Of a stretch of DNA of 64,000 nt, positions 15,567 through 41,351 are shown piece by piece; positions within the stretch are counted from its first letter, which is position 1; each line of letters opens with the position of its first letter. The notes beneath the pieces were generated by a model that saw only the letters and a list, made by a program, of their open reading frames with translations, did not search any database and was not told the origin of the DNA. Made by a program: the position numbers and the translations under genes. The DNA is from Candidatus Thalassarchaeaceae archaeon (GTDB taxonomy: Archaea > Thermoplasmatota > Poseidoniia > Poseidoniales > Thalassarchaeaceae), in NCBI GenBank assembly GCA_045568075.1, contig JBJLBP010000001.1, forward strand, positions 249,232 through 313,231, read 5' to 3'.

Positions 15567-18500
15567 TCATAATACTTGTTTTGGCCGACTAACGTGTCTA
15601 TTCAATTGCTGAGCAGTCCAAATCGCCCCAAATCCGAAGCTATCATGCAACGCGCGCGCTATTAGCATGAAATCAGAATCGCGTGTTGCTACCAGCACGC
15701 AGCCAACATCTGGGATGGTTGAGGCTGCGTGAACAGCAGAATCTCGCATTATATCGAGATCACCCAACTCCGGGTAAATCTCATGGCCATCGATCACACT
15801 GCGAGGAGGCGGATCATCTCGGGCCAATTGCTTAGCCTCAGAGATCTTCTCGTAAATTGCAGAATGCCTAACCAAGAAAGAGTCGAGATCGACGGCGTCC
15901 TTCTCTTCAGCATCAACCTCGGCCCTGAACGATCCGAAGGTCCTCAGAACCGATTGTACCCGCTCCTGTAACAGTTCAGGGCTAACCGTATCATCCCAGG
16001 ATTTGCGATCGACATATACATCGTTGAACAGAGCCAGAGCAACCTTGGGATTTCGAGTACGGTTGAGGAATTCACCTTGTGCCGAGGAAGGGATGCAGAG
16101 GTGAACACGGCCTTCCTTTGCCCTACGCTTGAGCATCCAAACAAAGGCCCTCTCAACAGTCCAGTCGAAAGTACCGAAGCTATCTTGTGAAATTTGACTG
16201 AGCAGGTCATCCTTCAGTGCGTCGATGAGGATATTCGTGTCGACGAGCACCAATGGCCTTAGCGCGAGGTGGTTGAGAGAACTTCTCTGACGTACTGGAA
16301 TCGTGCGACTGTGGCGGCGGAATAGGGCCTTTTGTGAGCGGACAAGAGTCTGAATTTGCCGCAAATCAAAATTGCCTGATTGAATCGCAGTTTCGAACAT
16401 TCTAAGACCGCGAATTGTAGATATTTCAGCAACTTCCTCTGCGATGAGAGTGATCTCGAGAACGTCCTTTCGTTCATTGAGTTCGAGCAAGAATCTACCT
16501 TCCAATTCGCTTCTCCTACTACTCTCCCTTCGGCGCATCATCATCTGCGCTGCGAGCACTCTTCCACGGAATGGGTCTTCCGGTAGTCTATGTTCAGAGG
16601 CATAACGCAGCGCCCGATCGAGAACTTCGAGTCGGCGCTTCACAGCTTCTCTGTCGATACCATCTATCTCTGGGTCCCCTGGTTCTCGCTCGGTGGTGTA
16701 TTCGATGATGCGTTGGGTGGCGACTTCGTTTCTTCCTGCGACCGCGTCGGCACAGGTGCGCAGATACAATTGGAATCTCGAAGTCACCGATGCGATCAAT
16801 TCTGGGTGATGATCGATCAGGTTGACAGCCTCTTTCCATCCTCCCGCATGAGCGAATTCGATGAGTGATTTTCGAAGTAGTAGTGCAGAGCGTTCGAAGT
16901 CGTCCCGAACCTTCATCGCCGCATCGCGGAAGGAACGAGCCGCGTTGATACGATCATCCTTCGAACGGGCGATGGTGGCTCTGACTGTTTGATGCTCGGC
17001 AGAGCCATTGTCGTGCTGTCTGTACCACATCTCAAGCTCAGGTATCGCAGCATCGTGCTCGATTACAAGATCGGTGGCAAAGCGAATGCTACGCATCGCC
17101 ACTTCGTTATCCAAGCATAGCGTACCTAGAGCAGCCAGAGCGGAATCGCTCCGTTCTTCTATTCCACTCTGCAAATCCATCGTCGCTCGATTCAACCGAA
17201 GCGCGTTGACTAGGGCTGTGAATAGGCTGCGCTCAAGATATGTCAGTTGAGCATTCATCACAGTCACTTCTAGAGTTTCGATTCGGTTCTCTCGGACCAA
17301 TCCATCTCCTTCCGCAGAGAGAGCTCGACGGACTTCATTGAGAGCGAGCACGCCGTCGGAATCCAACTTGTCGTGAACAGCATCCATTCCAGATGAAATG
17401 CCGCTCAGTAATGCGATTAGTGAAGATGCCGCGCTGGTCAAAACCTCATCCTCATCAGTATCCGCCAGAGCGAGTATTGCTCGCCTGCGCATGATTTCGA
17501 GATCCTCGAGCACCGTCACAGCTTGTGAAGCAGCGATTAGATGCCAGACGAGAAGAGCTCGGTGAGGGAATTGCGAAGCGAGCTCTGTGTGCGCGAGGAA
17601 TTCTCGGCTGAGGCCACCAACATCGGCTGAGAGTGTGTGAATATCGAGAACCTCTTCCTCGATTCCAAGTTCCTTGGTCGAGAGGATATTTGCGGCTCGT
17701 TTCCTGATGTTCAGAGGAGCTGCGTCATCGCGCATAACAGTGAGAACGACTTCATCGGAGGCCTTCTCCATCGCCTTGACGATTCTATCGACCAATCCAC
17801 CTTCGTCAATCTGATTGATTAGACTCAGAGCAGTGCGCATCTGTGACTCTCCATCGATATCCAAACCATCGAGCATCCCTGATGCTTCGTCGGAACGTCC
17901 GGCTCCAACTAAGCCCTCGATGACGCTCCAACGGAGAGAGTCGGGAGCGGAAAGACCCGCTTCATTGAGTATTTGCAACCCACCCATCAAGAAATCGACC
18001 TCACTGTCCTCATCCACCTCGAATTTCTTCCAAGCTTCAAGGCGAATCGCCGACGAAAGTGCATTTTCACCATCTTTGGTAACGCCATCCCGCCACTCAC
18101 CTCCATCTCCTACTCTCAGTGAGAGAAGTTGAGATTGAGCCGAGGCAATCTCAGCAATATGCTCGGAATCGATTGCCGCGAAGAGCGAAATTGCCTCTGT
18201 ATCTTCACTTGCTGCGAGCAGCATTGCTTCCAAAACCGCCGCATCACCACCCAATCCGCGAAGAGCGGGATCCATCCAAGCCTTCCACTTCCGCGGTCGT
18301 GCTCTACCTGAACGAAGGTCGCGGATGATTTGCTGCATCGCTGAAGCCTGGTGAATATCGAGGTTTAGTGTAGAGGCATCCAACCACTCGAGCAAGGAAT
18401 CACGGTCCATTGGATCGAAGTCAGCACGGATGACCCATTCATGAGAATCGACAGATACAGTATCTTCCTCTGAGATGGGAAATCGGCCTAATTCTGCAAG

Positions 18501-18950
18501 AATAGGGGCTTCTCGAGCCATTCTTTCCCAAACGGGATGAACGCCCGATTCGCATTCGACACGGAGGGTAGTGGCCTCTTCATCCCACTCACTCTTCCAC
18601 GAGTCCCCCATCTTCTGCTTCTGAGCAATCAAGACAGCGAGTCGATAGGCGGGGGATTCCTTCGAACCGATTACCGTTCGAGGAGTTTCTAATCGATCCC
18701 TTGCACTGGTTCCACCACTACGGCCACCTCTTCGTCCAATTCGTCGAGATCCTCTTGCCGGGCGAGTATCAGAAGCATCGGGATCGGCTGATTCAGGAGC
18801 CGTCTTGTCAGCAGCAAGCAAAGCCAAAGCTTTCCATTCTCGGCTCAGAAGACCCCACGCCTTTGGGCGTCTGACCTCCAGTTTTCTCCTACCCGGATCG
18901 TCGCCTGCTCGCTGCAGTTGTTCGACGCAATCGAGCAGGTAATCCTCCAA
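15567..18950 (-). CDS. Large (1127 aa) uncharacterised protein with C-terminal PIN-like nuclease domain
   Basis: C-terminal ~270 aa begin RPLVLVDTNILIDAL and contain later acidic motifs (VLVATRDSDF) typical of PIN domains. N-terminal ~850 aa is helix-rich with no motif I recognise. Confidence 0.6.
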   Translation of the reverse strand: MEDYLLDCVEQLQRAGDDPGRRKLEVRRPKAWGLLSREWKALALLAADKTAPESADPDASDTRPARGSRRIGRRGGRSGGTSARDRLETPRTVIGSKESPAYRLAVLIAQKQKMGDSWKSEWDEEATTLRVECESGVHPVWERMAREAPILAELGRFPISEEDTVSVDSHEWVIRADFDPMDRDSLLEWLDASTLNLDIHQASAMQQIIRDLRSGRARPRKWKAWMDPALRGLGGDAAVLEAMLLAASEDTEAISLFAAIDSEHIAEIASAQSQLLSLRVGDGGEWRDGVTKDGENALSSAIRLEAWKKFEVDEDSEVDFLMGGLQILNEAGLSAPDSLRWSVIEGLVGAGRSDEASGMLDGLDIDGESQMRTALSLINQIDEGGLVDRIVKAMEKASDEVVLTVMRDDAAPLNIRKRAANILSTKELGIEEEVLDIHTLSADVGGLSREFLAHTELASQFPHRALLVWHLIAASQAVTVLEDLEIMRRRAILALADTDEDEVLTSAASSLIALLSGISSGMDAVHDKLDSDGVLALNEVRRALSAEGDGLVRENRIETLEVTVMNAQLTYLERSLFTALVNALRLNRATMDLQSGIEERSDSALAALGTLCLDNEVAMRSIRFATDLVIEHDAAIPELEMWYRQHDNGSAEHQTVRATIARSKDDRINAARSFRDAAMKVRDDFERSALLLRKSLIEFAHAGGWKEAVNLIDHHPELIASVTSRFQLYLRTCADAVAGRNEVATQRIIEYTTEREPGDPEIDGIDREAVKRRLEVLDRALRYASEHRLPEDPFRGRVLAAQMMMRRRESSRRSELEGRFLLELNERKDVLEITLIAEEVAEISTIRGLRMFETAIQSGNFDLRQIQTLVRSQKALFRRHSRTIPVRQRSSLNHLALRPLVLVDTNILIDALKDDLLSQISQDSFGTFDWTVERAFVWMLKRRAKEGRVHLCIPSSAQGEFLNRTRNPKVALALFNDVYVDRKSWDDTVSPELLQERVQSVLRTFGSFRAEVDAEEKDAVDLDSFLVRHSAIYEKISEAKQLARDDPPPRSVIDGHEIYPELGDLDIMRDSAVHAASTIPDVGCVLVATRDSDFMLIARALHDSFGFGAIWTAQQLNRHVSRPKQVL

Positions 18951-23389: not shown

Positions 23390-23532
23390 GAGTTTTACCA
23401 AAGTGGCTCGATAGATTTCCTGATTGAGCCAACTTCTCATTTGAACCATGATACTCAGAGCCCTGCTTGATACGCTCGCGCGCGTATGAGGGGTTCCGTT
23501 GATAAGTTGGGCGAAGGTCAGGAGACACTTCG

Positions 23533-26500
23533 GTGGTCGGAATGAACAAAGAGATACAGACTTGGTATGGTCGAGAAAATAGGAAGAAGAGCACGTCAGC
23601 CCTGATGATGGTAGTGCTGATGCTACTGAGCACACAGATGTACAATTTCATCGGTGCTGAAGAGGCTGAAACCAGCCTTGAGGGGCCGGAAGAAACTCCT
23701 GCTCGGACTGCTTACCAGCAGTTCTACCAGAGTGGCGGAGCTAGTGCAGGCGAGACTCAAGGCCAGCCGGCTTCGACCGCTGACTTCCAGCACCCAGCCT
23801 TCTCTGATGCGAATTGGGTCGATCCAGCCTCATACCAAGGCAAGATCTCCGACCCCTCCATTCTCCTGACCGACCCAGGATACGGATTCCACCTTGAGGA
23901 GACCAATACCGAAGACCACGACAATGATGGAATCAATGATCTCGATGACCTCGATGACGACAATGATGGAATCAGCGATCTCATCGAGCGCTTCGACGGA
24001 TGCTATGGAACCGATCCATTCGACCACGATAACGACGGAATCGATGACGAGAGTGATTGGGATGACGATAACGATGGAATCCTAGAGGGCCCTATTGACT
24101 ACTCACAAGGCTCCGATCCTTGGAATGTCAGTGCCGACCGTTACGTCATGCCGAATGTAGTTCATCCATGGACTGGAACTCCGGTTGGCACCGGTTACCG
24201 AATCGATCAGAATCTGATGGATCACGATAACGATGGCGTCACCGATGAAGACATCGATGGCAGTGGGCGTGGCTCCTACGATGAGGACGACGACAACGAC
24301 GCTCGCATCGATCAATTCACTTGGCCATGCGATTTCGATGGTGACGGAGCTCAGGATTACTTCGACGACGACGACGATAACGACGGCGTCGTAGATCTCT
24401 GGGACTCACACCCTTGGGATGCCTCAATTACCACTAACATCACCGCCACAGCACCTCTTTGGGATGATTGGTATCAGTGGGTGTCTGCTGAGACTCATGA
24501 TATCGAAATCAGCCCAGGAAACTTGTTCTCTCCTCGAGCATTAACCATCAATGAGGGCGATACTGTTGTATGGACCAACGCTGATTCTCAAGATCACACA
24601 GTGACATCAGATATCGGCCTCTTCGACAGCGGTACCATCGTTCCTGGCGCAAGCTTCACATTCACCTTTGACAATGCAGGGACATTCAGCTATGTTTGCA
24701 ATATCCATCCGGCTATGACTGGCACAATCACAGTTCAGTCAACGAGTGGTTCCGACAATACTTACTCCGAATATATCGGCGGTGTCGACTATGTTTCGAT
24801 GGAAGCAAATGTGTGGCACCCTAGAAATCAATCCTTTACCGAAGTTGTCGATGGTGATCTCGACGGTGATGGAATCCCGAACTTCCTTGATCCTGACAAC
24901 GATAACGACGGAACACCTGACTCAGCCGATACTGATGATGACAACGATGGCTTACTCGACATGTACGATGTCGACGACGACAATGATGGAATATGGGATG
25001 AATGCATGCAACTCGATACAAACTCGGATGGCGAAGGCGATTATCCAAATTCCTTCGATATCCAAACTCCTGGGCGTGATTGTGAGATTGATTACGACAG
25101 GGACGCGGACGATGATCGATTTCGTCCAATTGATATGGATTACGATTTGGTATGGGATTGGATGGATCCAGACATGGGAGCACTTGAACTCGATGAGCTC
25201 GACAACCCGAATGGCGCTCCTCGGAACGATCCGGATGACGAGCCCTACGATCTAGACAATGATGGCGTCCTAAACGAAGCAGACCCGTACATGCTTGCTA
25301 CAGAGGAGCAAGTCAGTGAGTGGGACTGCGCCACTCAGACTAACCCCAATCCACAGAATTCCGACATGAATTGCACCGTCGCACGTAAGTCGTACACCGG
25401 AAATAATGACTGGGATGGTGACGGTCTGAATAACTGGGAGGACCGTGATGATGATAACGACGGAATCCTCGATTGGCTAGATATTGATCCGAATTGTGAT
25501 TTCGACGATGACAATGATTTGCATCTACTCAATGGTTCCCGCTTCCGTGACGATGGCCCGAATGACATCGATACCGATGTTGACGGGGATGGTTTGGCGA
25601 ACGACGAGGATTGGGACGACGATAACGATGGAATATCAGATTACTACGACCCCGATGACGGAAACTGTGGAGTGGTCGACCAAGACCAGACCGACCCCTT
25701 CGCGACATATTATGGATACTCACACGGTGATGGAGACATAATCGACGGTTCAGACGACAGCGACCTTTGGGCACAATTCGAGAATACGCACTGGAAGATG
25801 TGGTGGCACTTCAATCCGTTCACAGAGGAAAATGGATTCATCTATCCTCACAATGGCTACGACGATTCTACCGTGCCTCTGACAAATGGGCAGATTCCTG
25901 AGATGTATTGGTATGTCCTCATGCATTGGAGCCCTTGGAATGGAGCTAATTATTTCGATATTGACGTAGACGGCGATTCACTTCAGAATGGAATCGACGT
26001 CGATTCGGATGGAGATGGACTTCCCGATTGGTGGGATCAAGATGAAGGGAATGATGGAGTTCTGGATGTTAATGATCCAGGCCAAGGAGGCTCATTCGAC
26101 AATAACGAGTGTGGTTACACATTTTGGTGGCTTCTAATCGCCCAACAAGCCATTGAGCAAGCATGTGGACTGCCGTACGCCTGGCTTTACGGTTACCCTG
26201 TTATTCCGGCCAGTCGGACGAACGGAATGTCATTCACTATTCCCTATTCCAGCCGACCCGATGCAGATATGGACCAAGGGGCTTACAATGGAACCAATTC
26301 ACAAGGTCAGTGGACCTGTGAGACTCAATGTTGGCATTTCGATTTCTTAGGTCAAGGTGATGCTGGACCGAGCGCGGCTGTAAATTACAACCAGATGAAG
26401 GATAATCGGGATTTGTATACCGCTTGGGTCGGAATCACTTTCGGATTCTTCCAATGGACTGCTGACAGTAATGCCAATTTATTCCCCGATGAAGTCGCTG

Positions 26501-29500
26501 ATTTATTGAATAATGATGTTGATCCCGATGACGATTGTGGCGCTCCCATTCCAGGAAATTTAAATCCTCAATGTATGGTGAATGACACAGCAGATTTGGA
26601 TGATGATTTCGACGGAGTCTACGATCATTGGGATGTCGACGACGATAACGATGGAATCTGGGATTATTTCGAAATCGACAGTAATGACGATCTCGACGAC
26701 GACGCCAATATCGATGCCTCGAATTTCTTTACCGGCACAAATTGTGATGACAATGACGACGATGGAACCGACACGGATCCAGACGACGACGGTTGGTACC
26801 AAGCCGTCTGGGACAAAGGTGTGTTAGGACAGGGACTCCTATTCCCTGTGTACTACGATGTCGACAATGATAACGACGGAGTCCCTGATGGAGAAGACCC
26901 GGATGACGATAACAATGGAGTTTCCGACGCATTACAAGAAACTCTTTGCTTCGTCGGTGAAGAACAGAGTGTTTGGGATCATGATAACGACGGTATCCTT
27001 GACTGGGCTGATGACGACTGGGACGCCGATGGATTGGTCAATACTCTTGAGTTGAATACAGCCACACCGTTCATCTCTCCATGGGATCATGATAACGACG
27101 GATTGAGAGATGACATCGATCTCGACGACGATTCGGACGGTATGCTGGATAAGGACGAGATTATGCTATGGCCATCTCGCTTCGGTCAGGAATCAACAAA
27201 CCCGTGGGACCACGACGATTACGGAAATGGAACAGGTCCCGCTAACCCCTCTGATCCATTCACCGGTCCGGACGCGATTGACGAGGATGATGACAACGAC
27301 GAGAGGCCCGATCGCGATTGGGACCATCTCGAAGAGGACTGGTCGAATTCCTCAGATTGGGATAGCGATAACGACGGAATCCTTGACGAGGATGACAAGG
27401 TGCCTACGAGAATCAATCTCACGAGCGCTAACGTCCTCTGGCTCGATGCTGTAAATCCAGCCGTTTTCCGTGGTACTGTGAACTGGCTCGACCCTGATAC
27501 AGGCGTCTTCGAGCCAGCTCCAGACCTGCCGGTTCAGATTTCTATCGAATGGGCTCGAAATGGCACCCTTGCCCTCGAGACCGTCGATGTTCTGACCGAT
27601 GCGGCTGGAGCTTTCGTAGTCGGACAATTCCTCTTGCCAGAGGATCTCATTGTAGGTCCTAACACGACTTACAATGTCTACGCGGAAGTCACAGAAATGT
27701 TCTATCACGACGGTTCACAGACCGAACCGATACCTGTAGAAGTTCGCGCCAATACATCGATTGACTACGTCGCATGGACATACTTCCGCAGCGATGAGCA
27801 ACCACTCTTCACAGATTACAAGGTGCATTATGAGGCTGATTGGGATCGAGGAATCTTCGACAATCGAATTCCTAACGCACCAGTCTCCTTCCGCGTTCAC
27901 GGCGGACCATTCGGCAACCACACCCACCCGACCATCTTCGATGGATACGGCTACGGTTACCGCGCCGATTCAGGTGGATGGGTCTCACTAACCTTCGTCC
28001 AAACCGCCGGCGCACAGGGTCAGTGGAAGCAGGTTCAGTGGAATTCAACCATGGATAATGGCGTTGGCAAGCTACCAGGCGGCTACGAAGAAATCGTCTG
28101 GGATGACAATGCGAAAGATCACTTCGTCCTCGGACGTTATGACTACACAAACACCAGTTTGCCGATTGGTGATTATGCATTCATTGGTTTCGCCCGCCCC
28201 GACTTGGGCGATGAATGGCCATTCCCATACCTTGAGCAGTCCGAGACAGAAGCGTTTGCTATCCGCTCGATGCACCGAATGTACATCGAAGCTGACATGT
28301 TTACGCCATCGACTCGGCCGGTTTACTTCTGGGACACCACACAGTTCACTGGATCGTCCTTCGGAGCGTGGAGGGCTCTCTTCCACCAACCAAGTCTTGA
28401 CACCGCTGGCCTCGCCTACGAAGACGTAAGCCTCGGCAAGCCGTATGCGATGACTTGGGATGGAACTCCTGAGGGACTAACTGGAGAGAGTTCCCGACTA
28501 CGTCCGTTCCTCTCTTCGAACGGAACTCATTGGCGTATCGGCATGCAGAACGGTGGCGACTTCAATGTGCCACCTTGCGGACCAGTCGACCCGGTTGATC
28601 CGAATAGTGACGTTCGCTGCGAGATTATCCCTGAGATGTTTACCGGAGAGACTCTGAGAGTCATCGGAAGCGTTTGGAATCGGACTTTGGTTCCATGGCC
28701 GCATGACCCGATGACGCTACAGGTCGATCTCGATCGTAATGGAATCTTCGCGGGCTCGCAAGAGACTGGATACGCTCGAGCACCACAGATGGTGAACGGT
28801 GTCGCGACTTTCGATTACAACTGGACCTGGTATTCTCAATATGCAGCAGGTCACTACGGAATACGTGCTGACTTCACCAACTCGAACTACTACTTCACAG
28901 GAAACCAGAGTTCGGTCCTCGCTCCTACGGGCGCTTACCTCAATGTCTCAGTCATTGGAACAACCGAGTTCAAGGAATTGCTTGAACCGCGCCTATATCG
29001 TGGCCAAAATCGCACAATCGAGGTTCAGTTGCTTGATAATTCGTTGCAGCCGCTGAAGAATTCTCAGATTAATTATGTTTGGAGTGCGGATGGCACCAAT
29101 GGCATCGCTGAGACTGACGGAACGGGTTGGTTCTCGGTCAATCTAACGATTGAGAAGGATCACAATCTGGGCAACTTCACCCTCTCTTACAACTACCCAG
29201 GTGATCCTCGCCACCAAGGAACCTCTGGAACGATGGATCTCTGGGTTGTCTCACGCACTTACATCACACTGCAAGGTACAACCCCGAACATACGCTCCAA
29301 TGGAGATATCTGGGAATTCTCAGCACAGGTGACAGATGACAATCGCACAGCCATCATCAAGGATTCCGGACAGGCTTTGGACGGATGTGGTGAGAATGGC
29401 GGAGAAGTTCTCCTGATTATGGAAGGAACCGACTTCGACGATCGAACCCATAGACAAATCGTCGAGACCCTATGTCCGAACGCAGGAAACATCCACCACG

Positions 29501-31509
29501 AGATGGTGTTGGATCCACAACTCCTGCGCGACGACCCGCAATCCTTCCTACCGGATGGATTCGGTCCAGTAAACGTCGTATTGCGCTTCGAGGAGAACCT
29601 ACCTCACGAGGGCTGTGAACCACTCGACGCAGATGCGATGAGCACTTCCGGCGCATGGGACCCATGCGCCCAGATGGTGAACAGCGATCACTTCCGCAGA
29701 GTCATGCAGTTCCAAGTCGATGGGTTCAGCCTCATCGGCCGAACAGTTCTCAACGTCGACGATCAGATTGTTTACACTTCTGAAATCGATCCATCGACCG
29801 GACAGCCAATCGAGAAGCCCATGGTCGTCACCGGCCAGCTCGTTGACGAACTCGGATCTAACCTCTCTAACCGCGCTGTGCGCGTAACATACGAGATGGT
29901 CGGCTCTGAGACGGGAATCGTGGGTTGTCTACCAGGAACCTCAAACATGGACGGATTCTTCGAGATCACCTGCCCGCTTTCCGGCGTTCAGGCGGGACAA
30001 GCCCGAGTGAAGGTCGAGTTCAATTCATACGAGAATAACGACCGCTACCGCTACCACAATGCAAGCGTAACACGACTGTTCCCGGTCTTCTCGAACTCGA
30101 CTATGCACCTGCAAGAAATTGGTCCGTTCCGAAATGACATCGATTCGTACACCTTCCAGAATGGCTCGGTTTTCCCGGTGCTGTATCTCAAGGAGTCATT
30201 CCACCTCGATGCTAGGTTAACTCAGACGAATGGTAATCCGATTGGCGGTAAGTGCCTGAACATCTACCTCGATCCTGAGGTTAACACTCGGCCAATCGCC
30301 ACTTCGATTACGCGTGACGGAACTGGTGAAATCGAGTGGTTCAGCGGTGACCCGGAAGACAATCCCAGTCGCCGAGGAGTCGAACCGACATCTGAGATGA
30401 TGGAAGGATTCAGAGTAGTTAGAATCGCATACGAACCGACTAAGGAATTACCTGGCGGATGTCGTGCCGAGACAACTCCGGTTGTCAATGGTTCCTTCAT
30501 CGATATCGAAGTCCTCGTCAGGAGCCGCGTTGACATCCTACTGAAGAACCACTGGTCAAATCCAGATGGATATCAGGAAGGAGATTGGATCAACGGATCG
30601 GTCGCAATTCTGCGCGACCGACTCGACCTCGCGGTCGAGCACCAAACGGTGATCTTCACCTACCAGTATTGGAATGCCGAGGAAGGCATGTGGCTTCCAC
30701 ACAACGTGGTCTACGCTACTACGAACGAATTGGGTGTGGCATCGTTTAGCTTCGAATACTCGGGTGAAAATATACCTGGAGAACTCGAATGTAGCCAGGC
30801 CGGTTATTGTATCGACGAAGGAAGATGGCAAGTCATAATCCACTTCAAGGGCTCACACGAGTTTGAAGAGGAATATCTCAACAATACGCCTGAAATCTAT
30901 CTTGGTGAATTAGTCGCGAAGGGCGATACGAGCTTCTTCACGGTGCAGGTATTGACGATTCTAGGAATCGCAATGGCCTTCGCTCTGATGGTCGGCGCAA
31001 TCATGTATCGCAATTACATTGAGCGCCGACGCATCGAGATTCTGCGCGGAATACTCACCGACTCGCTAATGTCGCTAAAGGCGTCGAACGAATACATCGA
31101 CACCATCTTCAACTGCTACAAGGAATTAGTACGATTCTTCCGCAGTCGAGGCGCGATGAAGAAGGTCTACGAGACCACGCGAGAATTCGAGGATGCTGTG
31201 AGCACAATGCTCAGCGGCATTGCGCCGCCAGAGGATCTCAATGTCTTCTTCTCACTCTTTGAAGAAGCAAGGTACTCTGACCACGAGATTGGTGCAGACC
31301 AGCGAGACCGAGCCATCGGTGCGCTGCAGTCCATCATCAACCACATCAGTGCCTCTTTGGGCGAAGGAATGCTAAACCGAACCACTGCTAATGAGTCCGG
31401 CCTTTACGGCTCAGTCATCAAGGCTGGCTCGTTCGTTGACTCCGAGGGTCAAGAGCGCATCGCCGGAATCGATGACGGTTCAGACGGCGACGGCGGCTTC
31501 CGAATCTGA
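23533..31509 (+). CDS. Giant (2658 aa) cell-surface protein: signal peptide, ~40 thrombospondin-type-3-like Ca-binding repeats (DxDxDGxxDxxD), embedded plastocyanin-like cupredoxin domain, large beta-rich region, C-terminal TM helix and ~170 aa cytoplasmic tail
   Basis: N-terminal hydrophobic signal. Dozens of DHDNDGI.D..D.DDDNDG repeats from ~23900-27400. Cupredoxin segment GDTVVWTNADSQDHTVTS...FSYVCNIHPAMTGTITV (His/Cys/His/Met). TM FTVQVLTILGIAMAFALMVGAIMY near 30930-31010. Tail with ...FEEARYSDHE... motif. Confidence 0.85.
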   Translation: MVGMNKEIQTWYGRENRKKSTSALMMVVLMLLSTQMYNFIGAEEAETSLEGPEETPARTAYQQFYQSGGASAGETQGQPASTADFQHPAFSDANWVDPASYQGKISDPSILLTDPGYGFHLEETNTEDHDNDGINDLDDLDDDNDGISDLIERFDGCYGTDPFDHDNDGIDDESDWDDDNDGILEGPIDYSQGSDPWNVSADRYVMPNVVHPWTGTPVGTGYRIDQNLMDHDNDGVTDEDIDGSGRGSYDEDDDNDARIDQFTWPCDFDGDGAQDYFDDDDDNDGVVDLWDSHPWDASITTNITATAPLWDDWYQWVSAETHDIEISPGNLFSPRALTINEGDTVVWTNADSQDHTVTSDIGLFDSGTIVPGASFTFTFDNAGTFSYVCNIHPAMTGTITVQSTSGSDNTYSEYIGGVDYVSMEANVWHPRNQSFTEVVDGDLDGDGIPNFLDPDNDNDGTPDSADTDDDNDGLLDMYDVDDDNDGIWDECMQLDTNSDGEGDYPNSFDIQTPGRDCEIDYDRDADDDRFRPIDMDYDLVWDWMDPDMGALELDELDNPNGAPRNDPDDEPYDLDNDGVLNEADPYMLATEEQVSEWDCATQTNPNPQNSDMNCTVARKSYTGNNDWDGDGLNNWEDRDDDNDGILDWLDIDPNCDFDDDNDLHLLNGSRFRDDGPNDIDTDVDGDGLANDEDWDDDNDGISDYYDPDDGNCGVVDQDQTDPFATYYGYSHGDGDIIDGSDDSDLWAQFENTHWKMWWHFNPFTEENGFIYPHNGYDDSTVPLTNGQIPEMYWYVLMHWSPWNGANYFDIDVDGDSLQNGIDVDSDGDGLPDWWDQDEGNDGVLDVNDPGQGGSFDNNECGYTFWWLLIAQQAIEQACGLPYAWLYGYPVIPASRTNGMSFTIPYSSRPDADMDQGAYNGTNSQGQWTCETQCWHFDFLGQGDAGPSAAVNYNQMKDNRDLYTAWVGITFGFFQWTADSNANLFPDEVADLLNNDVDPDDDCGAPIPGNLNPQCMVNDTADLDDDFDGVYDHWDVDDDNDGIWDYFEIDSNDDLDDDANIDASNFFTGTNCDDNDDDGTDTDPDDDGWYQAVWDKGVLGQGLLFPVYYDVDNDNDGVPDGEDPDDDNNGVSDALQETLCFVGEEQSVWDHDNDGILDWADDDWDADGLVNTLELNTATPFISPWDHDNDGLRDDIDLDDDSDGMLDKDEIMLWPSRFGQESTNPWDHDDYGNGTGPANPSDPFTGPDAIDEDDDNDERPDRDWDHLEEDWSNSSDWDSDNDGILDEDDKVPTRINLTSANVLWLDAVNPAVFRGTVNWLDPDTGVFEPAPDLPVQISIEWARNGTLALETVDVLTDAAGAFVVGQFLLPEDLIVGPNTTYNVYAEVTEMFYHDGSQTEPIPVEVRANTSIDYVAWTYFRSDEQPLFTDYKVHYEADWDRGIFDNRIPNAPVSFRVHGGPFGNHTHPTIFDGYGYGYRADSGGWVSLTFVQTAGAQGQWKQVQWNSTMDNGVGKLPGGYEEIVWDDNAKDHFVLGRYDYTNTSLPIGDYAFIGFARPDLGDEWPFPYLEQSETEAFAIRSMHRMYIEADMFTPSTRPVYFWDTTQFTGSSFGAWRALFHQPSLDTAGLAYEDVSLGKPYAMTWDGTPEGLTGESSRLRPFLSSNGTHWRIGMQNGGDFNVPPCGPVDPVDPNSDVRCEIIPEMFTGETLRVIGSVWNRTLVPWPHDPMTLQVDLDRNGIFAGSQETGYARAPQMVNGVATFDYNWTWYSQYAAGHYGIRADFTNSNYYFTGNQSSVLAPTGAYLNVSVIGTTEFKELLEPRLYRGQNRTIEVQLLDNSLQPLKNSQINYVWSADGTNGIAETDGTGWFSVNLTIEKDHNLGNFTLSYNYPGDPRHQGTSGTMDLWVVSRTYITLQGTTPNIRSNGDIWEFSAQVTDDNRTAIIKDSGQALDGCGENGGEVLLIMEGTDFDDRTHRQIVETLCPNAGNIHHEMVLDPQLLRDDPQSFLPDGFGPVNVVLRFEENLPHEGCEPLDADAMSTSGAWDPCAQMVNSDHFRRVMQFQVDGFSLIGRTVLNVDDQIVYTSEIDPSTGQPIEKPMVVTGQLVDELGSNLSNRAVRVTYEMVGSETGIVGCLPGTSNMDGFFEITCPLSGVQAGQARVKVEFNSYENNDRYRYHNASVTRLFPVFSNSTMHLQEIGPFRNDIDSYTFQNGSVFPVLYLKESFHLDARLTQTNGNPIGGKCLNIYLDPEVNTRPIATSITRDGTGEIEWFSGDPEDNPSRRGVEPTSEMMEGFRVVRIAYEPTKELPGGCRAETTPVVNGSFIDIEVLVRSRVDILLKNHWSNPDGYQEGDWINGSVAILRDRLDLAVEHQTVIFTYQYWNAEEGMWLPHNVVYATTNELGVASFSFEYSGENIPGELECSQAGYCIDEGRWQVIIHFKGSHEFEEEYLNNTPEIYLGELVAKGDTSFFTVQVLTILGIAMAFALMVGAIMYRNYIERRRIEILRGILTDSLMSLKASNEYIDTIFNCYKELVRFFRSRGAMKKVYETTREFEDAVSTMLSGIAPPEDLNVFFSLFEEARYSDHEIGADQRDRAIGALQSIINHISASLGEGMLNRTTANESGLYGSVIKAGSFVDSEGQERIAGIDDGSDGDGGFRI
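23900..27400 (+). repeat. Low-complexity coding repeat region (GAYAAYGAYGG = DNDG units) inside the giant gene
   Basis: Recurrent gat-aac-gat-gg / gac-gac-gat-aac-gac-gg units seen many times. Confidence 0.7.
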
Positions 31510-33209: not shown

Positions 33210-33287
33210 GGGCCTGTAGGTTAGCTTGGCCTATACTTCGCGGCTGGGGGTCGCGCGACCCAGGTTCAAATCCTGGCTGGCCCACCA
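33210..33287 (+). tRNA. tRNA-Pro (anticodon GGG) with encoded CCA; non-canonical D-arm region
   Basis: Acceptor GGGCCUG/CUGGCCC (one U-U mismatch). Anticodon stem CGCGG/UCGCG with loop CUGGGGG. T-arm CCAGG-UUCAAAU-CCUGG. Discriminator A + CCA. The 5' half is ~3 nt longer than canonical. Confidence 0.55.
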
Positions 33288-33374: not shown

Positions 33375-35543
33375 ATGGTCCCGGAGGGCTCGGATGATTG
33401 GGCGAACAGCGCCCGGATTGAGGAGCTGGCAGGACTCCTCGCACACCATTCTAACCTCTACTACAATGAGGCCGCTCCAGAGATTCCCGACGCCGAATAT
33501 GACTTACTCTTCGACGAATTGAAGCAACTATCACCCGATCACCCACAACTAACCAAGGTAGGTTCGGACCCCGCACCAGGATCTGTGAAGGTTGACCACT
33601 TGTTCCCAATGCGCAGTCTCGATAAGGCAACTGAGGCCGAGGAAGTCATCCATTTTGTTGCAGAAACCACTGCTCACGGCCGCCGCTTTGTCTGCCAACC
33701 CAAACTCGACGGTTCAGCCCTATCGCTGGAATACCGTCGAGGCCGTCTAGTCCGTGCGGCCACGCGCGGAAATGGTGAGCGTGGCGAAGATGTCACAGCA
33801 AACGCTCGCCGAATCTCAAACATTCCAGAACAACTTGCTTGGGATGGTGATGCCCACGTACGAGGAGAAGTGGTGATGCCACTCGATATTTTCCGCTCGA
33901 AATACGCAAACATCGCCCCAAATCCGCGCAATCTCGCATCCGGCAGCTTACGGCAGAAGAGTGCCGATGCCGGCAAAGGAGACGCAGCTGACCTCGTATT
34001 CCACGCCTATGATGTGATGTTCCCCGAACTTGCCGACCGACACCCTGACAGCCCCTCTCCACCAGATTTCACCTTCGACTCGCAAGAGATCGATTGGTTG
34101 GTTGCAAACGGTATCGAAGTGGCTGGCAACGATGTGGTCGAAGGCGATGACGATGAGGCCGTTACAAATGGAATTCTCGATGTCACTCAGCGCTGGACTG
34201 AGCACCGAGAAAACGCCTCGTGGGAGATCGACGGAGTCGTCATCAAACTAGATGACCTTGCAAAGCGAAGTCTCCTCGGCCAGACCGCACATCATCCTCG
34301 ATGGGCACTAGCGTGGAAATTCCCTCCCGAGGAGGCATCGACAGTTCTGCTAGGAGTCGATTGGCAGACAGGTCGGACCGGCACGGTCACCCCTGTGGCG
34401 AGAGTCGCACCGGTAACAGTCTCCGGCGTAACTGTCGAAAACACGACACTGCACAACGCCGGAGAGATTGAAAGATTGGGAATCAGCATCGGCGACAGAG
34501 TCCGAATTGTCCGTAGAGGCGATGTGATTCCCAAAATAATCGAGGTTCTCGGGCCCGCAGACCAAACTGACCTCGACAATAGATTCCGTGCGGATGGTAC
34601 TGCCTTCAGCGACCCGCTACCGCTACGCCAAGCCGTCCCAATTCCTCACGAATGCCCACGATGTGGCACACAACTGAAGCAGGACGGTGCCTTCATCCGC
34701 TGCTTCAACCTTGATTGCCCATCGCGCCTAGAGCGTGCAATTCTCTACTGGTGTCGAGCGCTTGAGATGGACGGCATCGGAGAGAAACTCGCAGAACAAC
34801 TCTGTGAGGAAGGCCTCGTCAAGAGCTTGCCCGATCTCTACGCACTGACTCACTCAGATCTCGTAGGCCTCGAGCGCATGGGTGAGAAATCAGCAGCCAA
34901 TGTCGTCACTCAACTAGATTCAACCCGCTCGCTCAACCTCTCATCCTTCCTCTCAGCCCTAGGATTGCCTGGAATAGGCCCAGAATTAGCAAGTGCCTTC
35001 GCACGTGAAGTAGGAGAAGCAACCACTCTGTTTGACTTGTTAGCCGAACCGGAGGAAGCCATCCCACGACTGGTCACAATCGATGGCGTAGGAGAAACAG
35101 TAGCACGCTCATTCCTCGAAGGCTTAGATGAACGCAAGAGCGTCGTCGAAGGATTGGTGGACGTCCTCCTAATCGAAGCAGAACAAGTGATCGAAGAGGC
35201 GGACGGCCCTCTCACTGGTCAGACATTCTGTATCACAGGCACCCTAGGCCGTCCGCGAAAAGAAATCGCTCTGATGATCAAAGCAGCAGGAGGGAAAGTT
35301 GTCTCAACAGTCTCTGGCAAGCTCGACCACCTCGTCGCCGGAAACTCGGCTGGCTCCAAGTTGGACAAGGCGAATAGGCTCTCAGTCAACGTCCTCAGCG
35401 AAATTGACCTTGAAGCCATGCTCGCCGGCGAATCAACTCTAGACGATGGAAGCGTCGACGAAGCGGAAGGAGAAATTGTCGCCGACGCCGGCCCACAGCA
35501 GATGTCCCTCGGCGACTACGGTTCGTCGGAACCAGTAGAATAG
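33375..35543 (+). CDS. ligA: NAD+-dependent DNA ligase (LigA/LigN type) with C-terminal BRCT
   Basis: KxDG adenylation motif (CQPKLDGSALSL), Zn-finger Cys (CPRCGTQL...C...C), HhH region and BRCT (FCITGTLGRPRKEI). Confidence 0.9.
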   Translation: MVPEGSDDWANSARIEELAGLLAHHSNLYYNEAAPEIPDAEYDLLFDELKQLSPDHPQLTKVGSDPAPGSVKVDHLFPMRSLDKATEAEEVIHFVAETTAHGRRFVCQPKLDGSALSLEYRRGRLVRAATRGNGERGEDVTANARRISNIPEQLAWDGDAHVRGEVVMPLDIFRSKYANIAPNPRNLASGSLRQKSADAGKGDAADLVFHAYDVMFPELADRHPDSPSPPDFTFDSQEIDWLVANGIEVAGNDVVEGDDDEAVTNGILDVTQRWTEHRENASWEIDGVVIKLDDLAKRSLLGQTAHHPRWALAWKFPPEEASTVLLGVDWQTGRTGTVTPVARVAPVTVSGVTVENTTLHNAGEIERLGISIGDRVRIVRRGDVIPKIIEVLGPADQTDLDNRFRADGTAFSDPLPLRQAVPIPHECPRCGTQLKQDGAFIRCFNLDCPSRLERAILYWCRALEMDGIGEKLAEQLCEEGLVKSLPDLYALTHSDLVGLERMGEKSAANVVTQLDSTRSLNLSSFLSALGLPGIGPELASAFAREVGEATTLFDLLAEPEEAIPRLVTIDGVGETVARSFLEGLDERKSVVEGLVDVLLIEAEQVIEEADGPLTGQTFCITGTLGRPRKEIALMIKAAGGKVVSTVSGKLDHLVAGNSAGSKLDKANRLSVNVLSEIDLEAMLAGESTLDDGSVDEAEGEIVADAGPQQMSLGDYGSSEPVE

Positions 35544-35565: not shown

Positions 35566-36606
35566 TTACTGTGTCAATATTCGATGGAAGTGATGAACTC
35601 CAGCCTCTTTGGTCGGAGAGTATCGGCCGCGTTCATAGGCGACTGACGAGACGCCTTTTTGGCAACCTTCGACGATAAATTGGTCCTCAGCCTCAACCTT
35701 GTCCAAGTCGCCCCCGGCACCCTTTGCAAGCATGGCTGAATCGCCGACAAACCCATGGTATACGATGCGGGTCTTGTCTACCGATTCAGGGATGACAAGA
35801 TTGACCGAGAGACCCCACGGATAGAAATTCAGCATTAGACCAGGATGTAACCAAAAGTAGTATGCGGCGATGTTCTGGCCAAAGTCAGGATGTTCTTCAG
35901 GTAAATCGAAACAAGGCTCTCCATCATTTGCAATTCCAATCTGTAGTACACCGCCATCGAAAAGCTCGGTACTGTATGCATCATAATCGAGGACGTCATG
36001 CAATCCTCCGTGGACGAATGGAATGTGAAATCCTTCCAGATAATTGTCCACATACAGCGCCCAGTTGGATTCGATTGTATATTCTCGATGGCGATTCAAA
36101 TCATGTGTGAACGCTTCGATAGATAGCCATCCGACTCGTGCCTCAACTTCGGCGATGAAGGAATCAAAATCATCAGCTGAGACTGTGTTGAATAGCAAGC
36201 CTTTCCACTCTGCTAAAGGGAATGTTCGAAGATGATCTGCATCGGTAGGAAAATTCTCCACGGTGTCGAATTCTGGCATACTACGAAACTGTCCATCTAA
36301 ATTGAAGACGCGTCCGTGGTAGGGACATTGCAATCGCTTTGCCTCTGAGGATTCCGTACAGACAAGCATCCCTCGATGTGTACAAACATTGGAGATGCAG
36401 TGTAATTCACCTTCACTCTGTGTAAGCAGCATCGGCTCTTTCAGAGGATTATCAATGGGTTGAGCCGTAGACAATTGGCTACGATGCGCAGCAAAGTGCC
36501 AATTCTGACCGAACGACGAGGTGACTGAATCGAAGGTCTTGGTCTCAGTGTAAAATCTGGAGGGGAGTGTCTCAGCTTTGCGGATGTCTGGGTCGATGAT
36601 GGTCAT
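35566..36606 (-). CDS. Rieske [2Fe-2S] non-heme iron oxygenase, alpha-subunit-like
   Basis: CISNVCTHRGMLVC...LQCPYHGRVF Rieske CxH...CxxH. C-terminal catalytic domain with His residues. Confidence 0.8.
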   Translation of the reverse strand: MTIIDPDIRKAETLPSRFYTETKTFDSVTSSFGQNWHFAAHRSQLSTAQPIDNPLKEPMLLTQSEGELHCISNVCTHRGMLVCTESSEAKRLQCPYHGRVFNLDGQFRSMPEFDTVENFPTDADHLRTFPLAEWKGLLFNTVSADDFDSFIAEVEARVGWLSIEAFTHDLNRHREYTIESNWALYVDNYLEGFHIPFVHGGLHDVLDYDAYSTELFDGGVLQIGIANDGEPCFDLPEEHPDFGQNIAAYYFWLHPGLMLNFYPWGLSVNLVIPESVDKTRIVYHGFVGDSAMLAKGAGGDLDKVEAEDQFIVEGCQKGVSSVAYERGRYSPTKEAGVHHFHRILTQ

Positions 36607-38787: not shown

Positions 38788-39599
38788 CGCTTGTCGATTC
38801 GTTCCAATTCCTCTAATGTACGCCCCTTGTGCTTGCCGAAGGCGATGACTACACCATTTTCTGAGTGGCGCAGTTTACCGTTTGTACCTTCTACAGGCTC
38901 GAGGTCGACCATTCCAGGCCCAAGGCGATCGCTGCTCCCACGGTTACCTGAGAGCATGTCTTGTAATTCGTCGAGGTCACCGCGGAAATCCTTCGGATGA
39001 CTCTGCATCATCGACCAAAGCAGCAAGAGTGTCGCGCCCGCATCTGCATCAGCTGTATGGGCGCGTGTGATGCTGATATCGTAACGCGCGCAAAGCGTCC
39101 CCAGCGCATGCCTCCCAGGAATTCGCAATTTGCGCGCTAGCGTCAGTGTGTCGATGATGGCGCGCGGGACAGGCACTTCGAAGCCCGCGCGCATACACTC
39201 GAGTTCAAGGAATCTCCAATCGAATCGAGTGACATTGTGACCGACTATTACCGCGCCCGAAATCAATCTGCTCAACTCTGGTAGGTGCTCGGAGAATTCC
39301 TTCTCTCCTTTGACATCCGCATCCATGATGCCATGCACACGAGAAGAAGCATCAGGAATTTGTCGACGAGGATTAACTAGTGAAGTTTGATTGATGTGAG
39401 ATCCATCCTCGTCGCTCCCAATCAGCGCATATTGAACAATTCTATCACTACGTGGATCGAGTCCAGTAGTCTCCAAGTCGAAGCCTAGAACGCGGTATCC
39501 AGCGAGCATCCCTCCGACCATGACGGCACGTGCAAGAGGCCCCCCATGAACTTCTGTGGTGACGGGGTTGAACCCGTCATGCCTATTTGCGCGTCTCAT
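38706..39599 (-). CDS. DEDDh 3'-5' exonuclease (DnaQ/epsilon-like) with C-terminal extension
   Basis: Exo I VLGFDLETTGLD, H-x4-D region SRVHGIMDADV. Start at internal Met (39599 or 39521) to avoid overlap with the divergent PKD lipoprotein gene. 3' end overlaps the convergent nuclease gene by ~80 bp. Confidence 0.65.
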   Translation of the reverse strand: MRRANRHDGFNPVTTEVHGGPLARAVMVGGMLAGYRVLGFDLETTGLDPRSDRIVQYALIGSDEDGSHINQTSLVNPRRQIPDASSRVHGIMDADVKGEKEFSEHLPELSRLISGAVIVGHNVTRFDWRFLELECMRAGFEVPVPRAIIDTLTLARKLRIPGRHALGTLCARYDISITRAHTADADAGATLLLLWSMMQSHPKDFRGDLDELQDMLSGNRGSSDRLGPGMVDLEPVEGTNGKLRHSENGVVIAFGKHKGRTLEELERIDKRYLDWLASPSSPIPSKTVSELLRSQRE

Positions 39600-39612
39600 T
39601 ACCAATCCTCTG

Positions 39613-40779
39613 ATGAACAGGACCGAGGCGACTGCAAAGATGCTCTCACTCCTTCTCCTCACCACCGCACTTGCAGGTTGCACTGGGCTCGCCTCGACCA
39701 CTCCGATTGCAGATATTACCGCGGATCGCACAACGGTGAATGTCGGCGAGACCGTCAATTTTGACGCTAGAGGTTCGACTACTCCTTCGCCGACAATAAT
39801 CGACGAATATGTCTGGGATTTCGGCGAAGCTGAGAAGCGCACGACAACTACTGGAATTGCTTTCCACACTTTCACAGAGGCCGGGAACCACGACGTCGAA
39901 GTCGAAGTTTTCAATGATCAGGGTGAGAGCGATCGCGCCTCGATTGCAATTTTCGTTAATTCCCCTCCAATCGTCGTCCTCGATATGCCTGGATATGTGC
40001 GAACCAACGAGACCGCCACCATCGATGCCAGTTCCTCCTATGATCCCGAAGGCGGTGGTGTCGAATACATCTGGGACCTTGACCTCGGCTTCGACCGCAA
40101 CGGCGATGGTGACCCTCGTAACGACGCCGACGCAACCTCATCATCTGTCGAAGTGATGTACGCCGACTCGGGTAATCAGACAGGAATGCTCACTCTCATC
40201 GACGACAATGGTGCGACGACCACTCAGACCTGGAGTCTGATGGTCGTCAATCGTATGTTCAACGTCGTTTGGGAAGAACAGCACGTCAGCTTCGAATGGA
40301 ACGGACACACCGAACAGGGTGAGAGCACAATCCACGAGCACACCCCTGGAGACGGGGCTCGAATCATCCAAGTTAACGCGACGCTGACTTTGGCTCGAGA
40401 CCTACTGCCATTCCAATGGCCAGAGGACAATTTCACTCTGCGAGTCAATGTACCTATGACCGGTTGGACGACGAGCACGCAGACTACTCAGGAAAATGTC
40501 ACACTAAATGCGACTGCTCGCATTGACCGGGGCGGGATGAATCCGTGGCCCGAGAGTGGTTATACCGTAAGTTCGGACTCGTCCGAAAGCCTCGTTGAAA
40601 GCCTGCTCAACGAAGCGGGAGCGAGGTTTGGCCAAGGAGAATGGATTTGGACGGTAACGGCAGACGAGTGCGACCCAGATATCCCAATCGATGGAGTAGA
40701 TCCTGATACTGGCAATGATTGGACTCTGACCATCGATTACATCATTCTGATCCCTAGAGTCAGTGAAGTCGGAGCCTGA
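39613..40779 (+). CDS. PKD-domain-containing secreted lipoprotein
   Basis: Signal + lipobox LLLLTTALAGC. Two PKD-like modules (VNVGETVNFDARGS...YVWDFGEA; ETATIDASSSYDPEGGGVEYIWDLD). Confidence 0.6.
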   Translation: MNRTEATAKMLSLLLLTTALAGCTGLASTTPIADITADRTTVNVGETVNFDARGSTTPSPTIIDEYVWDFGEAEKRTTTTGIAFHTFTEAGNHDVEVEVFNDQGESDRASIAIFVNSPPIVVLDMPGYVRTNETATIDASSSYDPEGGGVEYIWDLDLGFDRNGDGDPRNDADATSSSVEVMYADSGNQTGMLTLIDDNGATTTQTWSLMVVNRMFNVVWEEQHVSFEWNGHTEQGESTIHEHTPGDGARIIQVNATLTLARDLLPFQWPEDNFTLRVNVPMTGWTTSTQTTQENVTLNATARIDRGGMNPWPESGYTVSSDSSESLVESLLNEAGARFGQGEWIWTVTADECDPDIPIDGVDPDTGNDWTLTIDYIILIPRVSEVGA

Positions 40780-41274: not shown

Positions 41275-41351
41275 GGACCCATAGTGTAGCCTGGATATCA
41301 CTGGGGCTTGCGGAGCCTCAAACCCGTGTTCGAATCGCGGTGGGTCCGCCA
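41275..41351 (+). tRNA. tRNA-Arg (anticodon GCG) with encoded CCA
   Basis: Acceptor GGACCCA/UGGGUCC perfect. Anticodon stem GGGGC/GCCUC with loop UUGCGGA. T-arm CCGUG-UUCGAAU-CGCGG. Discriminator G + CCA. Confidence 0.8.

Follow-up and report, generated by a model that had tools for sequence, protein, structure and literature searches.

We analysed a 64,000-nucleotide stretch of a Candidatus Thalassarchaeaceae genome (GenBank assembly GCA_045568075.1, contig JBJLBP010000001.1, positions 249,232 to 313,231 of the forward strand; hereafter, the window), focusing on one gene of ~8 kb, roughly 0.4% of a ~2-Mb genome, that encodes a giant surface protein. The window is archaeal, encoding L18e, L13, S9, PAC2 proteasome-assembly proteins and MCM. 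An earlier reading made from the letters and their translated open reading frames (the sequence-only reading) had placed a 2658-aa open reading frame at 23533-31509; the frame is indeed present and uninterrupted, the public protein P0001 (2658 aa) is identical to its product, and the protein length is 2,655-2,658 residues depending on the start. The product is a type-I membrane protein, with a signal-peptide-like N-terminus, calcium-type motifs, a cupredoxin, a beta-sandwich stalk, a transmembrane helix and a DUF4129 tail, arranged as follows in window coordinates:

23533..31509, plus strand: whole open reading frame of the giant envelope protein, 2658 codons plus stop (GTG at 23533; stop at 31507-31509)
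23450..23541, plus strand: conserved upstream region, with repeated TGATAC / TTGATAA boxes and then GGTGGTCGGA directly before the ATG
23542..23661, plus strand: signal-peptide-like N-terminal segment as read from the sequence (basic RENRKKS, hydrophobic ALMMVVLMLLSTQMYNFIGA, acidic EEAE)
23914..27399, plus strand: acidic calcium-motif region, residues 128-1289, with DxDxDG cores interspersed with Cys/Trp-rich modules
24472..24744, plus strand: amicyanin-type cupredoxin insert, residues 314-404, with ligands His355, Cys389, His392 and Met395
27400..30897, plus strand: macroglobulin/Ig-like beta-sandwich stalk, residues ~1290-2455, from AlphaFold2, Foldseek and N-x-S/T sequons
30934..31008, plus strand: single transmembrane helix, residues 2468-2492, followed by basic RNYIERRR on the cytoplasmic side
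31033..31359, plus strand: cytoplasmic helical DUF4129 module, residues ~2501-2609 (Pfam core 2528-2598), from Pfam, alignments and AlphaFold2
31360..31506, plus strand: Poseidoniales-specific C-terminal extension, low-confidence/disordered, ending in a conserved G-F-x-I

The true start is likely the ATG at 23542 (residue 4) rather than the GTG at 23533; GGTGGTCGGA precedes this ATG, and a relative with a 79%-identical protein conserves both the box and the position of the ATG. The region upstream of the ATG is conserved at locus L002 and partly at the Poseidoniaceae locus L001, and it may be a promoter or regulatory site. Two minus-strand frames that overlap the 5' end of the gene have no counterpart at the locus of the 79%-identical relative and look spurious. 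At 23390..23540, panD (aspartate decarboxylase), which in L002 lies between a SPOUT methyltransferase gene and the giant gene, is missing here.

The C-terminal end is the part of the protein that links it to other lineages. The single transmembrane helix was recovered as first described, and the tentative assignment of the EEARYS motif to DUF4129 (PF13559) was borne out, with scores above the Pfam cut-off of 24.8 bits for both the whole protein (27.6 bits) and a tail fragment (32.0 bits). The cytoplasmic tail comprises 166 residues, and its DUF4129 module of about 110 residues is helical in the AlphaFold2 model. An initial description as a ~170-aa basic, helical tail was therefore right about the helices and wrong about the charge, which is -7 net, with basic residues confined to the juxtamembrane YRNYIERRR. 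Tails of family members and of distant relatives (46 were aligned) share the signature ...T.REFE...FEEARYS.H..., with little or no variation; in alignment A4, E77 and Y81 are invariant, and A, R, S and H nearly invariant.

This module follows a transmembrane helix at the C terminus, as it does in DUF4129/TgpA-type transglutaminase membrane proteins, and the T.REF...EEARYS.H signature is common to the giant protein and 40+ distant relatives. In one relative, P0198, the same tail is joined to two transglutaminase cores and TgpA_N. The giant protein differs from the TgpA type in having no detectable transglutaminase core (no Pfam match to Transglut_core on the whole protein or fragments) and in an ectodomain that is far larger and adds calcium motifs and a cupredoxin; compared with DUF4129 proteins in general, its tail carries the extra Poseidoniales-specific extension. 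A candidate core at residues ~860-980 (ECGYTF...ACGLPYAWLYGY), resembling G.C..F...GIPAR..GY by eye, was rejected: Pfam returned nothing, and alignment of this Cys segment to the transglutaminase-like region of a Marine Group III relative using hhalign gave a probability of 0.1. Separately, the Marine Group III protein P0189 (L007 10001..15931) has a transglutaminase-like motif, GACRHRSF...PTRYVSNEAHAFVEV, at about residue 445, with no Pfam call at E<1e-3; if the motif is real, this protein would be a TgpA-like enzyme ending in a DUF4129 tail.

Among 5.8 billion proteins searched, 329 relatives of the giant protein were identified. The best 120 of these, from which length and identity figures were taken, have ~2,500-2,700 residues and are 50-82% identical over essentially the full length. 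Their source names (Thalassarchaeaceae, Poseidoniaceae, Poseidonia and Poseidoniales) span both Marine Group II families. Identity per 50-residue block is 60-80% nearly throughout, the exceptions being the N-terminus and residues ~300-450, which is more conservation than surface proteins usually show. Immediately downstream of the gene lies L18e-L13-S9 in all of the contexts examined, namely the window, the 1.96-Mb genome of a 52%-identical relative, two further contigs and the metagenome-assembled genome SIMO Bin 19-2. Relatives are annotated as 'DUF4129 domain-containing protein' or 'plastocyanin', and literature searches on DUF4129 and Marine Group II surface proteins found no description of the family. 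Contrary to the initial impression of an architecture without a match in any family, this is a large, conserved Poseidoniales family within a wider class of beta-sandwich, transmembrane and DUF4129 proteins.

This wider class leads to a predicted complex of arCOG01314 (DUF4350), MoxR and vWA proteins that, to our knowledge, no experiment has characterised. Searching exhaustively with HMMER, using the last 1,200 residues of the giant protein, we retrieved 474 proteins; outside the close family, the aligned part is centred on the transmembrane helix and tail. The distant relatives range from ~450 to 2,300 residues, with ectodomains of Big_3_5, CarboxypepD_reg and macroglobulin-type beta-sandwiches, and one has a bacterial TSP3 repeat. 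The class is known but uncharacterised, and in Poseidoniales it is enlarged by the calcium-motif region and, in one sublineage, also by the cupredoxin. Three distant relatives head the same operon, which encodes the DUF4129 protein, DUF4350, a MoxR AAA+ ATPase, DUF58 and a protein of 226-281 residues. Hydropathy gives the following topologies: DUF4350, whose ectodomain is GldG-like, crosses the membrane once and has ~100 residues in its cytoplasmic tail; DUF58, which carries a vWA-like domain, has a pair of transmembrane helices at its N-terminus; MoxR is soluble and cytoplasmic; and the last protein is polytopic.

Scanning species-representative genomes with a DUF4350 query showed how these genes are arranged in the two marine groups. 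In Marine Group III, about 40 loci have the DUF4129-DUF4350-MoxR-DUF58 operon, preceded by a gene for a 974-residue bacterial-type TSP3 protein. Marine Group II (Poseidoniales) contigs have DUF4350-DUF58-membrane protein clusters at a locus apart from the giant gene, and DUF4350, MoxR and DUF58 were not found beside the giant-protein orthologs at L001-L003. An early suggestion that DUF4129 keeps company with MoxR-vWA modules thus held for the superfamily and failed in the vicinity of this gene. At L074 (7234..13640, Poseidoniales), a Cdc48/VAT-type double AAA+ ATPase precedes a DUF4350-DUF58-membrane protein cluster, which may be a coincidence or a replacement for the MoxR that lies inside the operon in Marine Group III. 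We also considered whether the giant protein arose when the 974-aa TSP3 protein of Marine Group III became fused to its 1,976-aa DUF4129 neighbour. This was not supported: neither phmmer nor BLAST detected any resemblance of the 974-aa protein to the giant one, and the calcium repeats are of a different flavour.

Two published gene neighbourhoods resemble these operons. The searched text of Makarova, Galperin and Koonin 2015 (PMC5898192) describes the arCOG01314 (DUF4350)-MoxR-vWA neighbourhood as a predicted secretion/membrane-remodelling complex of archaea, lists Ig-like membrane and predicted S-layer proteins among the components, and does not mention DUF4129. Such operons begin with a homolog of the giant protein in Marine Group III and other Thermoplasmatota, whereas the Marine Group II giant gene is unlinked and sits beside ribosomal protein genes, and the Marine Group II clusters have no adjacent MoxR. 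The second is the PFNA cluster of Bifidobacterium (PMC8430577), comprising an FN3-domain membrane protein, MoxR, DUF58 and a transglutaminase, for which adhesion and host sensing have been proposed. There, too, an anchored beta-sandwich surface protein is genetically coupled to MoxR and DUF58, but the cluster is bacterial, its protein is much smaller and its kinase partner is absent here; the comparison covers architecture and gene content.

Turning to the ectodomain, we begin with the acidic region at residues 128-1289. The pattern D-x-D-x-D-G-x-x-D-x-x-D is that of thrombospondin type-3 calcium sites. We counted 32 D-x-D-x-D-G cores (29 non-overlapping; 36 allowing Asn), all in residues 128-1282, compared to 1.2 +/- 1.1 (maximum 6) after shuffling the same region, and 14 complete D-x-D-x-D-G-x-x-D-x-x-D units over the same residues. 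The repeats have the consensus D-x-D-N-D-G-[ILV]-x-D-x-x-D, often paired at a 13-residue period. Asp makes up 25-30% of the region, whose net charge is about -295 and whose identity across the order is 60-80%. In the 12-residue unit, the hydrophobic residue after Gly and the 13-residue period, the repeats match the TSP3 repeats that form the calcium 'wire' of thrombospondins and COMP as well as bacterial TSP3, and they are likewise modelled as coil-like, without regular secondary structure. They lack the regular Cys pattern of animal TSP3 and the DGWE/YGLdP signature of bacterial TSP3, which is present in the Marine Group III neighbour gene. The '~40 TSP3-like repeats' first reported were therefore a mild overcount of a genuine motif, and membership of Pfam TSP_3 or TSP3_bac was rejected, as no profile matched the whole protein or fragments; at the level of the motif only, the sequence resembles thrombospondin type 3. 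A family profile searched against the PDB gave only a weak match to BamM (E=0.007). Rinke et al. 2018 found 'thrombospondin genes' to be widespread in Poseidoniales and interpreted them as adhesion genes, and comparative-genomics counts of this kind may include this one core gene.

Following the calcium-motif region is the >1000-aa beta-rich segment noted from the sequence, which proved all-beta in the AlphaFold2 model, with pLDDT (predicted local distance difference test) values mostly 80-90. From its length of ~1,150 residues, we estimate roughly 10-11 beta-sandwich domains. The best Foldseek matches were to the macroglobulin (MG)-domain arrays of alpha-2-macroglobulin, complement C3/C5, TEP1 and bacterial ECAM (E~1e-18), but with TM-scores of only ~0.1, which places the likeness in the repeated domains and not in the global assembly. 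Pfam matches to MG2, Big_1 and Invasin_D3 were weak, those to MG families falling far below threshold. The stalk contains 22 N-x-S/T sequons versus 8.8 expected; across 120 family members the mean is 26.3 versus 11.2 expected, and most sites are conserved. This excess points to an N-glycosylated, extracellular stalk.

The same structural matches raise the idea of a membrane-anchored, alpha-2-macroglobulin-like protease trap, with which the stalk would have the tandem array of MG-like beta-sandwiches in common. We consider this extremely improbable. Compared with alpha-2-macroglobulin and complement, the stalk has no bait region, CUB domain or thioester domain; the model contains no helical thioester domain, and a search of the giant protein for the CGEQ thioester motif found only an unrelated CGEN at residue 1952. 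Together with the low TM-scores and the subthreshold MG profiles, this led us to reject an alpha-2-macroglobulin function.

The stalk and its sequons also bear on whether the giant protein is an S-layer, or principal lattice, glycoprotein of Marine Group II, assembled by calcium-bridged lateral contacts and anchored by its C-terminal helix. Euryarchaeal S-layer glycoproteins are alike in having a signal peptide, Ig-like domains, a C-terminal anchor and sequons, and the giant protein has a putative signal peptide, an Ig-like chain, a C-terminal membrane anchor and many conserved sequons, is found in both Marine Group II families and is syntenic wherever its context was examined. Predicted S-layer proteins are, moreover, among the DUF4350-system neighbours in the searched text of Makarova et al. 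2015 (PMC5898192). Several observations nonetheless make this reading unlikely. A conservation of 50-80% over 2,650 residues, and the size itself, are unusual for S-layer proteins, which are usually less conserved and smaller. The protein has a conserved, folded cytoplasmic domain instead of a simple anchor. PGF-CTERM is the anchoring type of haloarchaeal S-layer glycoproteins, and we found no PGF motif at the C-terminus of the giant protein, which instead ends in the transmembrane helix and the 166-residue folded tail; a surface protein of PGF-CTERM type is encoded elsewhere in the same window. Finally, tabulated transcript values for an ortholog (discussed below) are about ten-fold lower than those of the adjacent L18e and far below proteorhodopsin, in units that are uncertain.

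Embedded in the calcium-motif region is the copper domain. The plastocyanin-like segment with four type-1 copper ligands recognised by the sequence-only reading was confirmed by Pfam at residues 322-402 (Cupredoxin_1, 30.3 bits, cut-off 27; Copper-bind, 28.1 bits, cut-off 21.2). Searching the PDB using phmmer recovered 9cck_A (E=1e-14), 5fc9_A (E=6e-8) and many amicyanins (~1e-5), with all four ligands in register with solved copper ligands, and the AlphaFold2 domain (pLDDT 79-91) superposed on 5fc9_A with a TM-score of 0.83 and a root-mean-square deviation of 0.8 A. The closest solved structures are thus a Nitrosopumilus maritimus cupredoxin (5fc9) and, in 9cck, the C-terminal domain of a multicopper oxidase from Nitrosopumilus, and the C-x2-H-x2-M ligand loop is that of amicyanin. 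The domain probably binds type-1 copper in this organism. Outside the family, its nearest relatives are free-standing cupredoxins of 105-155 residues, up to 60% identical. Where cupredoxins are usually small soluble or anchored carriers, this one is embedded in a loop of a 2,650-residue protein, and about half of the orthologs that carry it have lost the copper ligands.

The distribution of the insert across the family was uneven. Among 120 cluster representatives, it was found in 17 (16 by phmmer plus P0019 from alignment and tree) and is absent from the other 103, including all Poseidoniaceae; in insert-free representatives, the flanking residues join directly, leaving the protein about 90 residues shorter. 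The C-x2-H-x2-M loop is kept in eight of the 17 carriers (the window protein and seven others), and the Cys-His-Met loop is lost in the remaining nine, most of which also have an ...ETSQ.LPDAF... extension. When the protein body (residues 460-2650) was placed on a neighbour-joining tree, proteins with an intact insert, a degenerate one or none were interleaved, which implies repeated loss or exchange. The cupredoxin is an accessory cassette in a hypervariable loop, outside the family's conserved mechanism, and not, as first proposed, a defining part of the architecture.

This distribution weighs heavily on the proposal that the protein is an extracellular electron-transfer or respiratory scaffold with a type-1 copper centre as its core. 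The intact ligands here and in seven other representatives, the confidently predicted fold and the close kinship to free-standing cupredoxins all speak for it, as does a second cupredoxin-bearing surface protein encoded in the window. With the domain confined to 17 of 120 representatives and about half of these without ligands, however, electron transfer cannot be the core function of the family; in addition, the 2,650 residues contain a single copper site and no further redox cofactor motif, and no respiratory gene is adjacent. We therefore regard the scaffold as very unlikely, and as a family function it is largely refuted. The second cupredoxin-bearing protein (4412..6760, plus strand) has 782 residues, with a signal peptide, four fasciclin domains, a C-terminal plastocyanin-type cupredoxin (HNV...CEPHATTGM) and, at its end, a PGF-CTERM-like sequence (ASLPGFTAGIAALAVFGAVMLVAGRRQN). 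Its counterpart in Damashek et al. 2021 is the 'halocyanin', and it is a more plausible tethered respiratory electron carrier than the giant protein. No paralog of the giant protein's tail, stalk or cupredoxin was found elsewhere in the window, the fasciclin-cupredoxin protein matching only at E=0.029.

The loop that accepts the cupredoxin is the sole hypervariable segment of the protein and would suit a receptor, in which binding of a ligand or metal, copper included, is relayed in either direction through the single helix to DUF4129. The cytoplasmic module is as conserved as the ectodomain, and the Bifidobacterium FN3/MoxR/DUF58/transglutaminase cluster has been proposed to serve host sensing (PMC8430577). 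Outside-in signalling is possible, but a receptor of this kind seems to us quite unlikely: neither the protein nor the adjacent genes contain a recognised signalling domain (kinase, cyclase, HAMP or similar), MoxR and vWA, the operon partners, are proteins of the kind that act as chaperones or in assembly, and a 2,400-residue ectodomain on one helix is an unlikely transmitter of conformational change.

On balance, we lean towards reading the giant protein as a calcium-stiffened, glycosylated envelope or adhesion protein that is coupled through its tail to the DUF4350/MoxR/DUF58 system. Seawater contains about 10 mM calcium, and the distal motifs would bind it, giving a rigid and strongly acidic array that serves to organise the surface or to attach the cell. 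The chain of glycosylated beta-sandwiches would act as a spacer, and the DUF4129 tail as a cytoplasmic handle by which DUF58 and DUF4350, with MoxR where present, might assemble, position or remodel the protein. A more ambitious version appears improbable. In it, a dispersed DUF4129-DUF4350-DUF58 membrane machine (a new envelope assembly or attachment apparatus) would have the giant protein as its working part outside the cell, and the hypervariable loop would be a site for swappable cassettes, occupied by a working blue-copper centre in some lineages, by a copper-dead copy in others and by nothing in the rest, and maybe under diversifying pressure from contact with viruses or ligands.

Several results weigh against a calcium-stiffened protein coupled to this system. 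Pfam TSP_3 (PF02412) and TSP3_bac (PF18884) matched neither the whole protein (E<=1) nor four fragments of the repeat region (E<=5), PDB searches with the giant protein recovered no thrombospondin or COMP chain, and AlphaFold2 modelled the repeats with low confidence and no regular secondary structure, so that it is the motif alone that suggests calcium binding. PDB searches likewise returned no solved structure matching the tail. The 64-kb window contains no MoxR, DUF58 or DUF4350 gene, and neither MoxR nor a DUF4129 protein is encoded within 10 kb of the DUF4350-DUF58 clusters of Marine Group II; because these partners are unlinked, the functional link in Marine Group II rests on homology with the operons of other lineages. 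An adhesion role is plausible.

Other genes in the window provide further context. A bacterial-type NAD-dependent DNA ligase, LigA (33375..35543, plus strand; OB, HhH and BRCT domains), is conserved in position in both Marine Group II families (L001 and L002), and relative to L002/L003 a gene for a Rieske ring-hydroxylating oxygenase alpha-subunit (35566..36606, minus strand) is inserted between the ligase and PAC2. An 1127-aa protein (15567..18950, minus strand) is mostly helical and apparently cytoplasmic, without a Pfam match, and its position is conserved in L002/L003 (1566..4943). A 407-aa secreted surface protein with two PKD domains (39556..40779, plus strand) is syntenic with L002. Two transport proteins are unusually large: a 1032-aa fused ABC-transporter component with SBP_bac_3 and two Peripla_BP_6/ANF_receptor domains (48275..51373, plus strand), and a 1241-aa protein with two BPD_transp_2 permease units (51492..55217, plus strand), which is followed by two ATPase genes. 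ARAGORN called tRNA-Pro(GGG) at 33210..33287 and tRNA-Arg(GCG) at 41275..41351; despite these two calls, an Rfam scan of the window at gathering thresholds returned no RNA family, tRNA included.

Marine Group II archaea, the most abundant archaea of the plankton, are uncultured, and we know of no experimental information on their cell envelope. Transcription of the giant gene has already been recorded under another name. The ortholog appears in the supplementary tables that accompany Damashek et al. 2021, as gene 515 of SIMO Bin 19-2, which is 7.9 kb long, lies beside L18e and is annotated 'Plastocyanin petE'. The main text of that study treats it as a copper redox protein that was transcribed more in O1-active samples (log2 fold change 1.94, adjusted p 0.08), reported beside aglB (oligosaccharyltransferase), proteorhodopsin and the 'halocyanin'; the low values relative to L18e and proteorhodopsin noted above come from one of its tables. 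Because gene 515 encodes the giant envelope protein, the redox interpretation of its transcription signal should be revised: the coastal Thalassarchaeaceae 'plastocyanin' transcripts come from an envelope protein and not from a soluble electron carrier. The DUF4350-MoxR-DUF58 system occurs widely among archaea and bacteria and is itself uncharacterised, and the giant protein offers it a concrete candidate substrate or partner. The gene of this protein is conserved order-wide and shows transcription in marine samples, making it a prime candidate for surface building or particle attachment, and its main importance lies in the ecological weight of its hosts and in the correction of a published functional reading.

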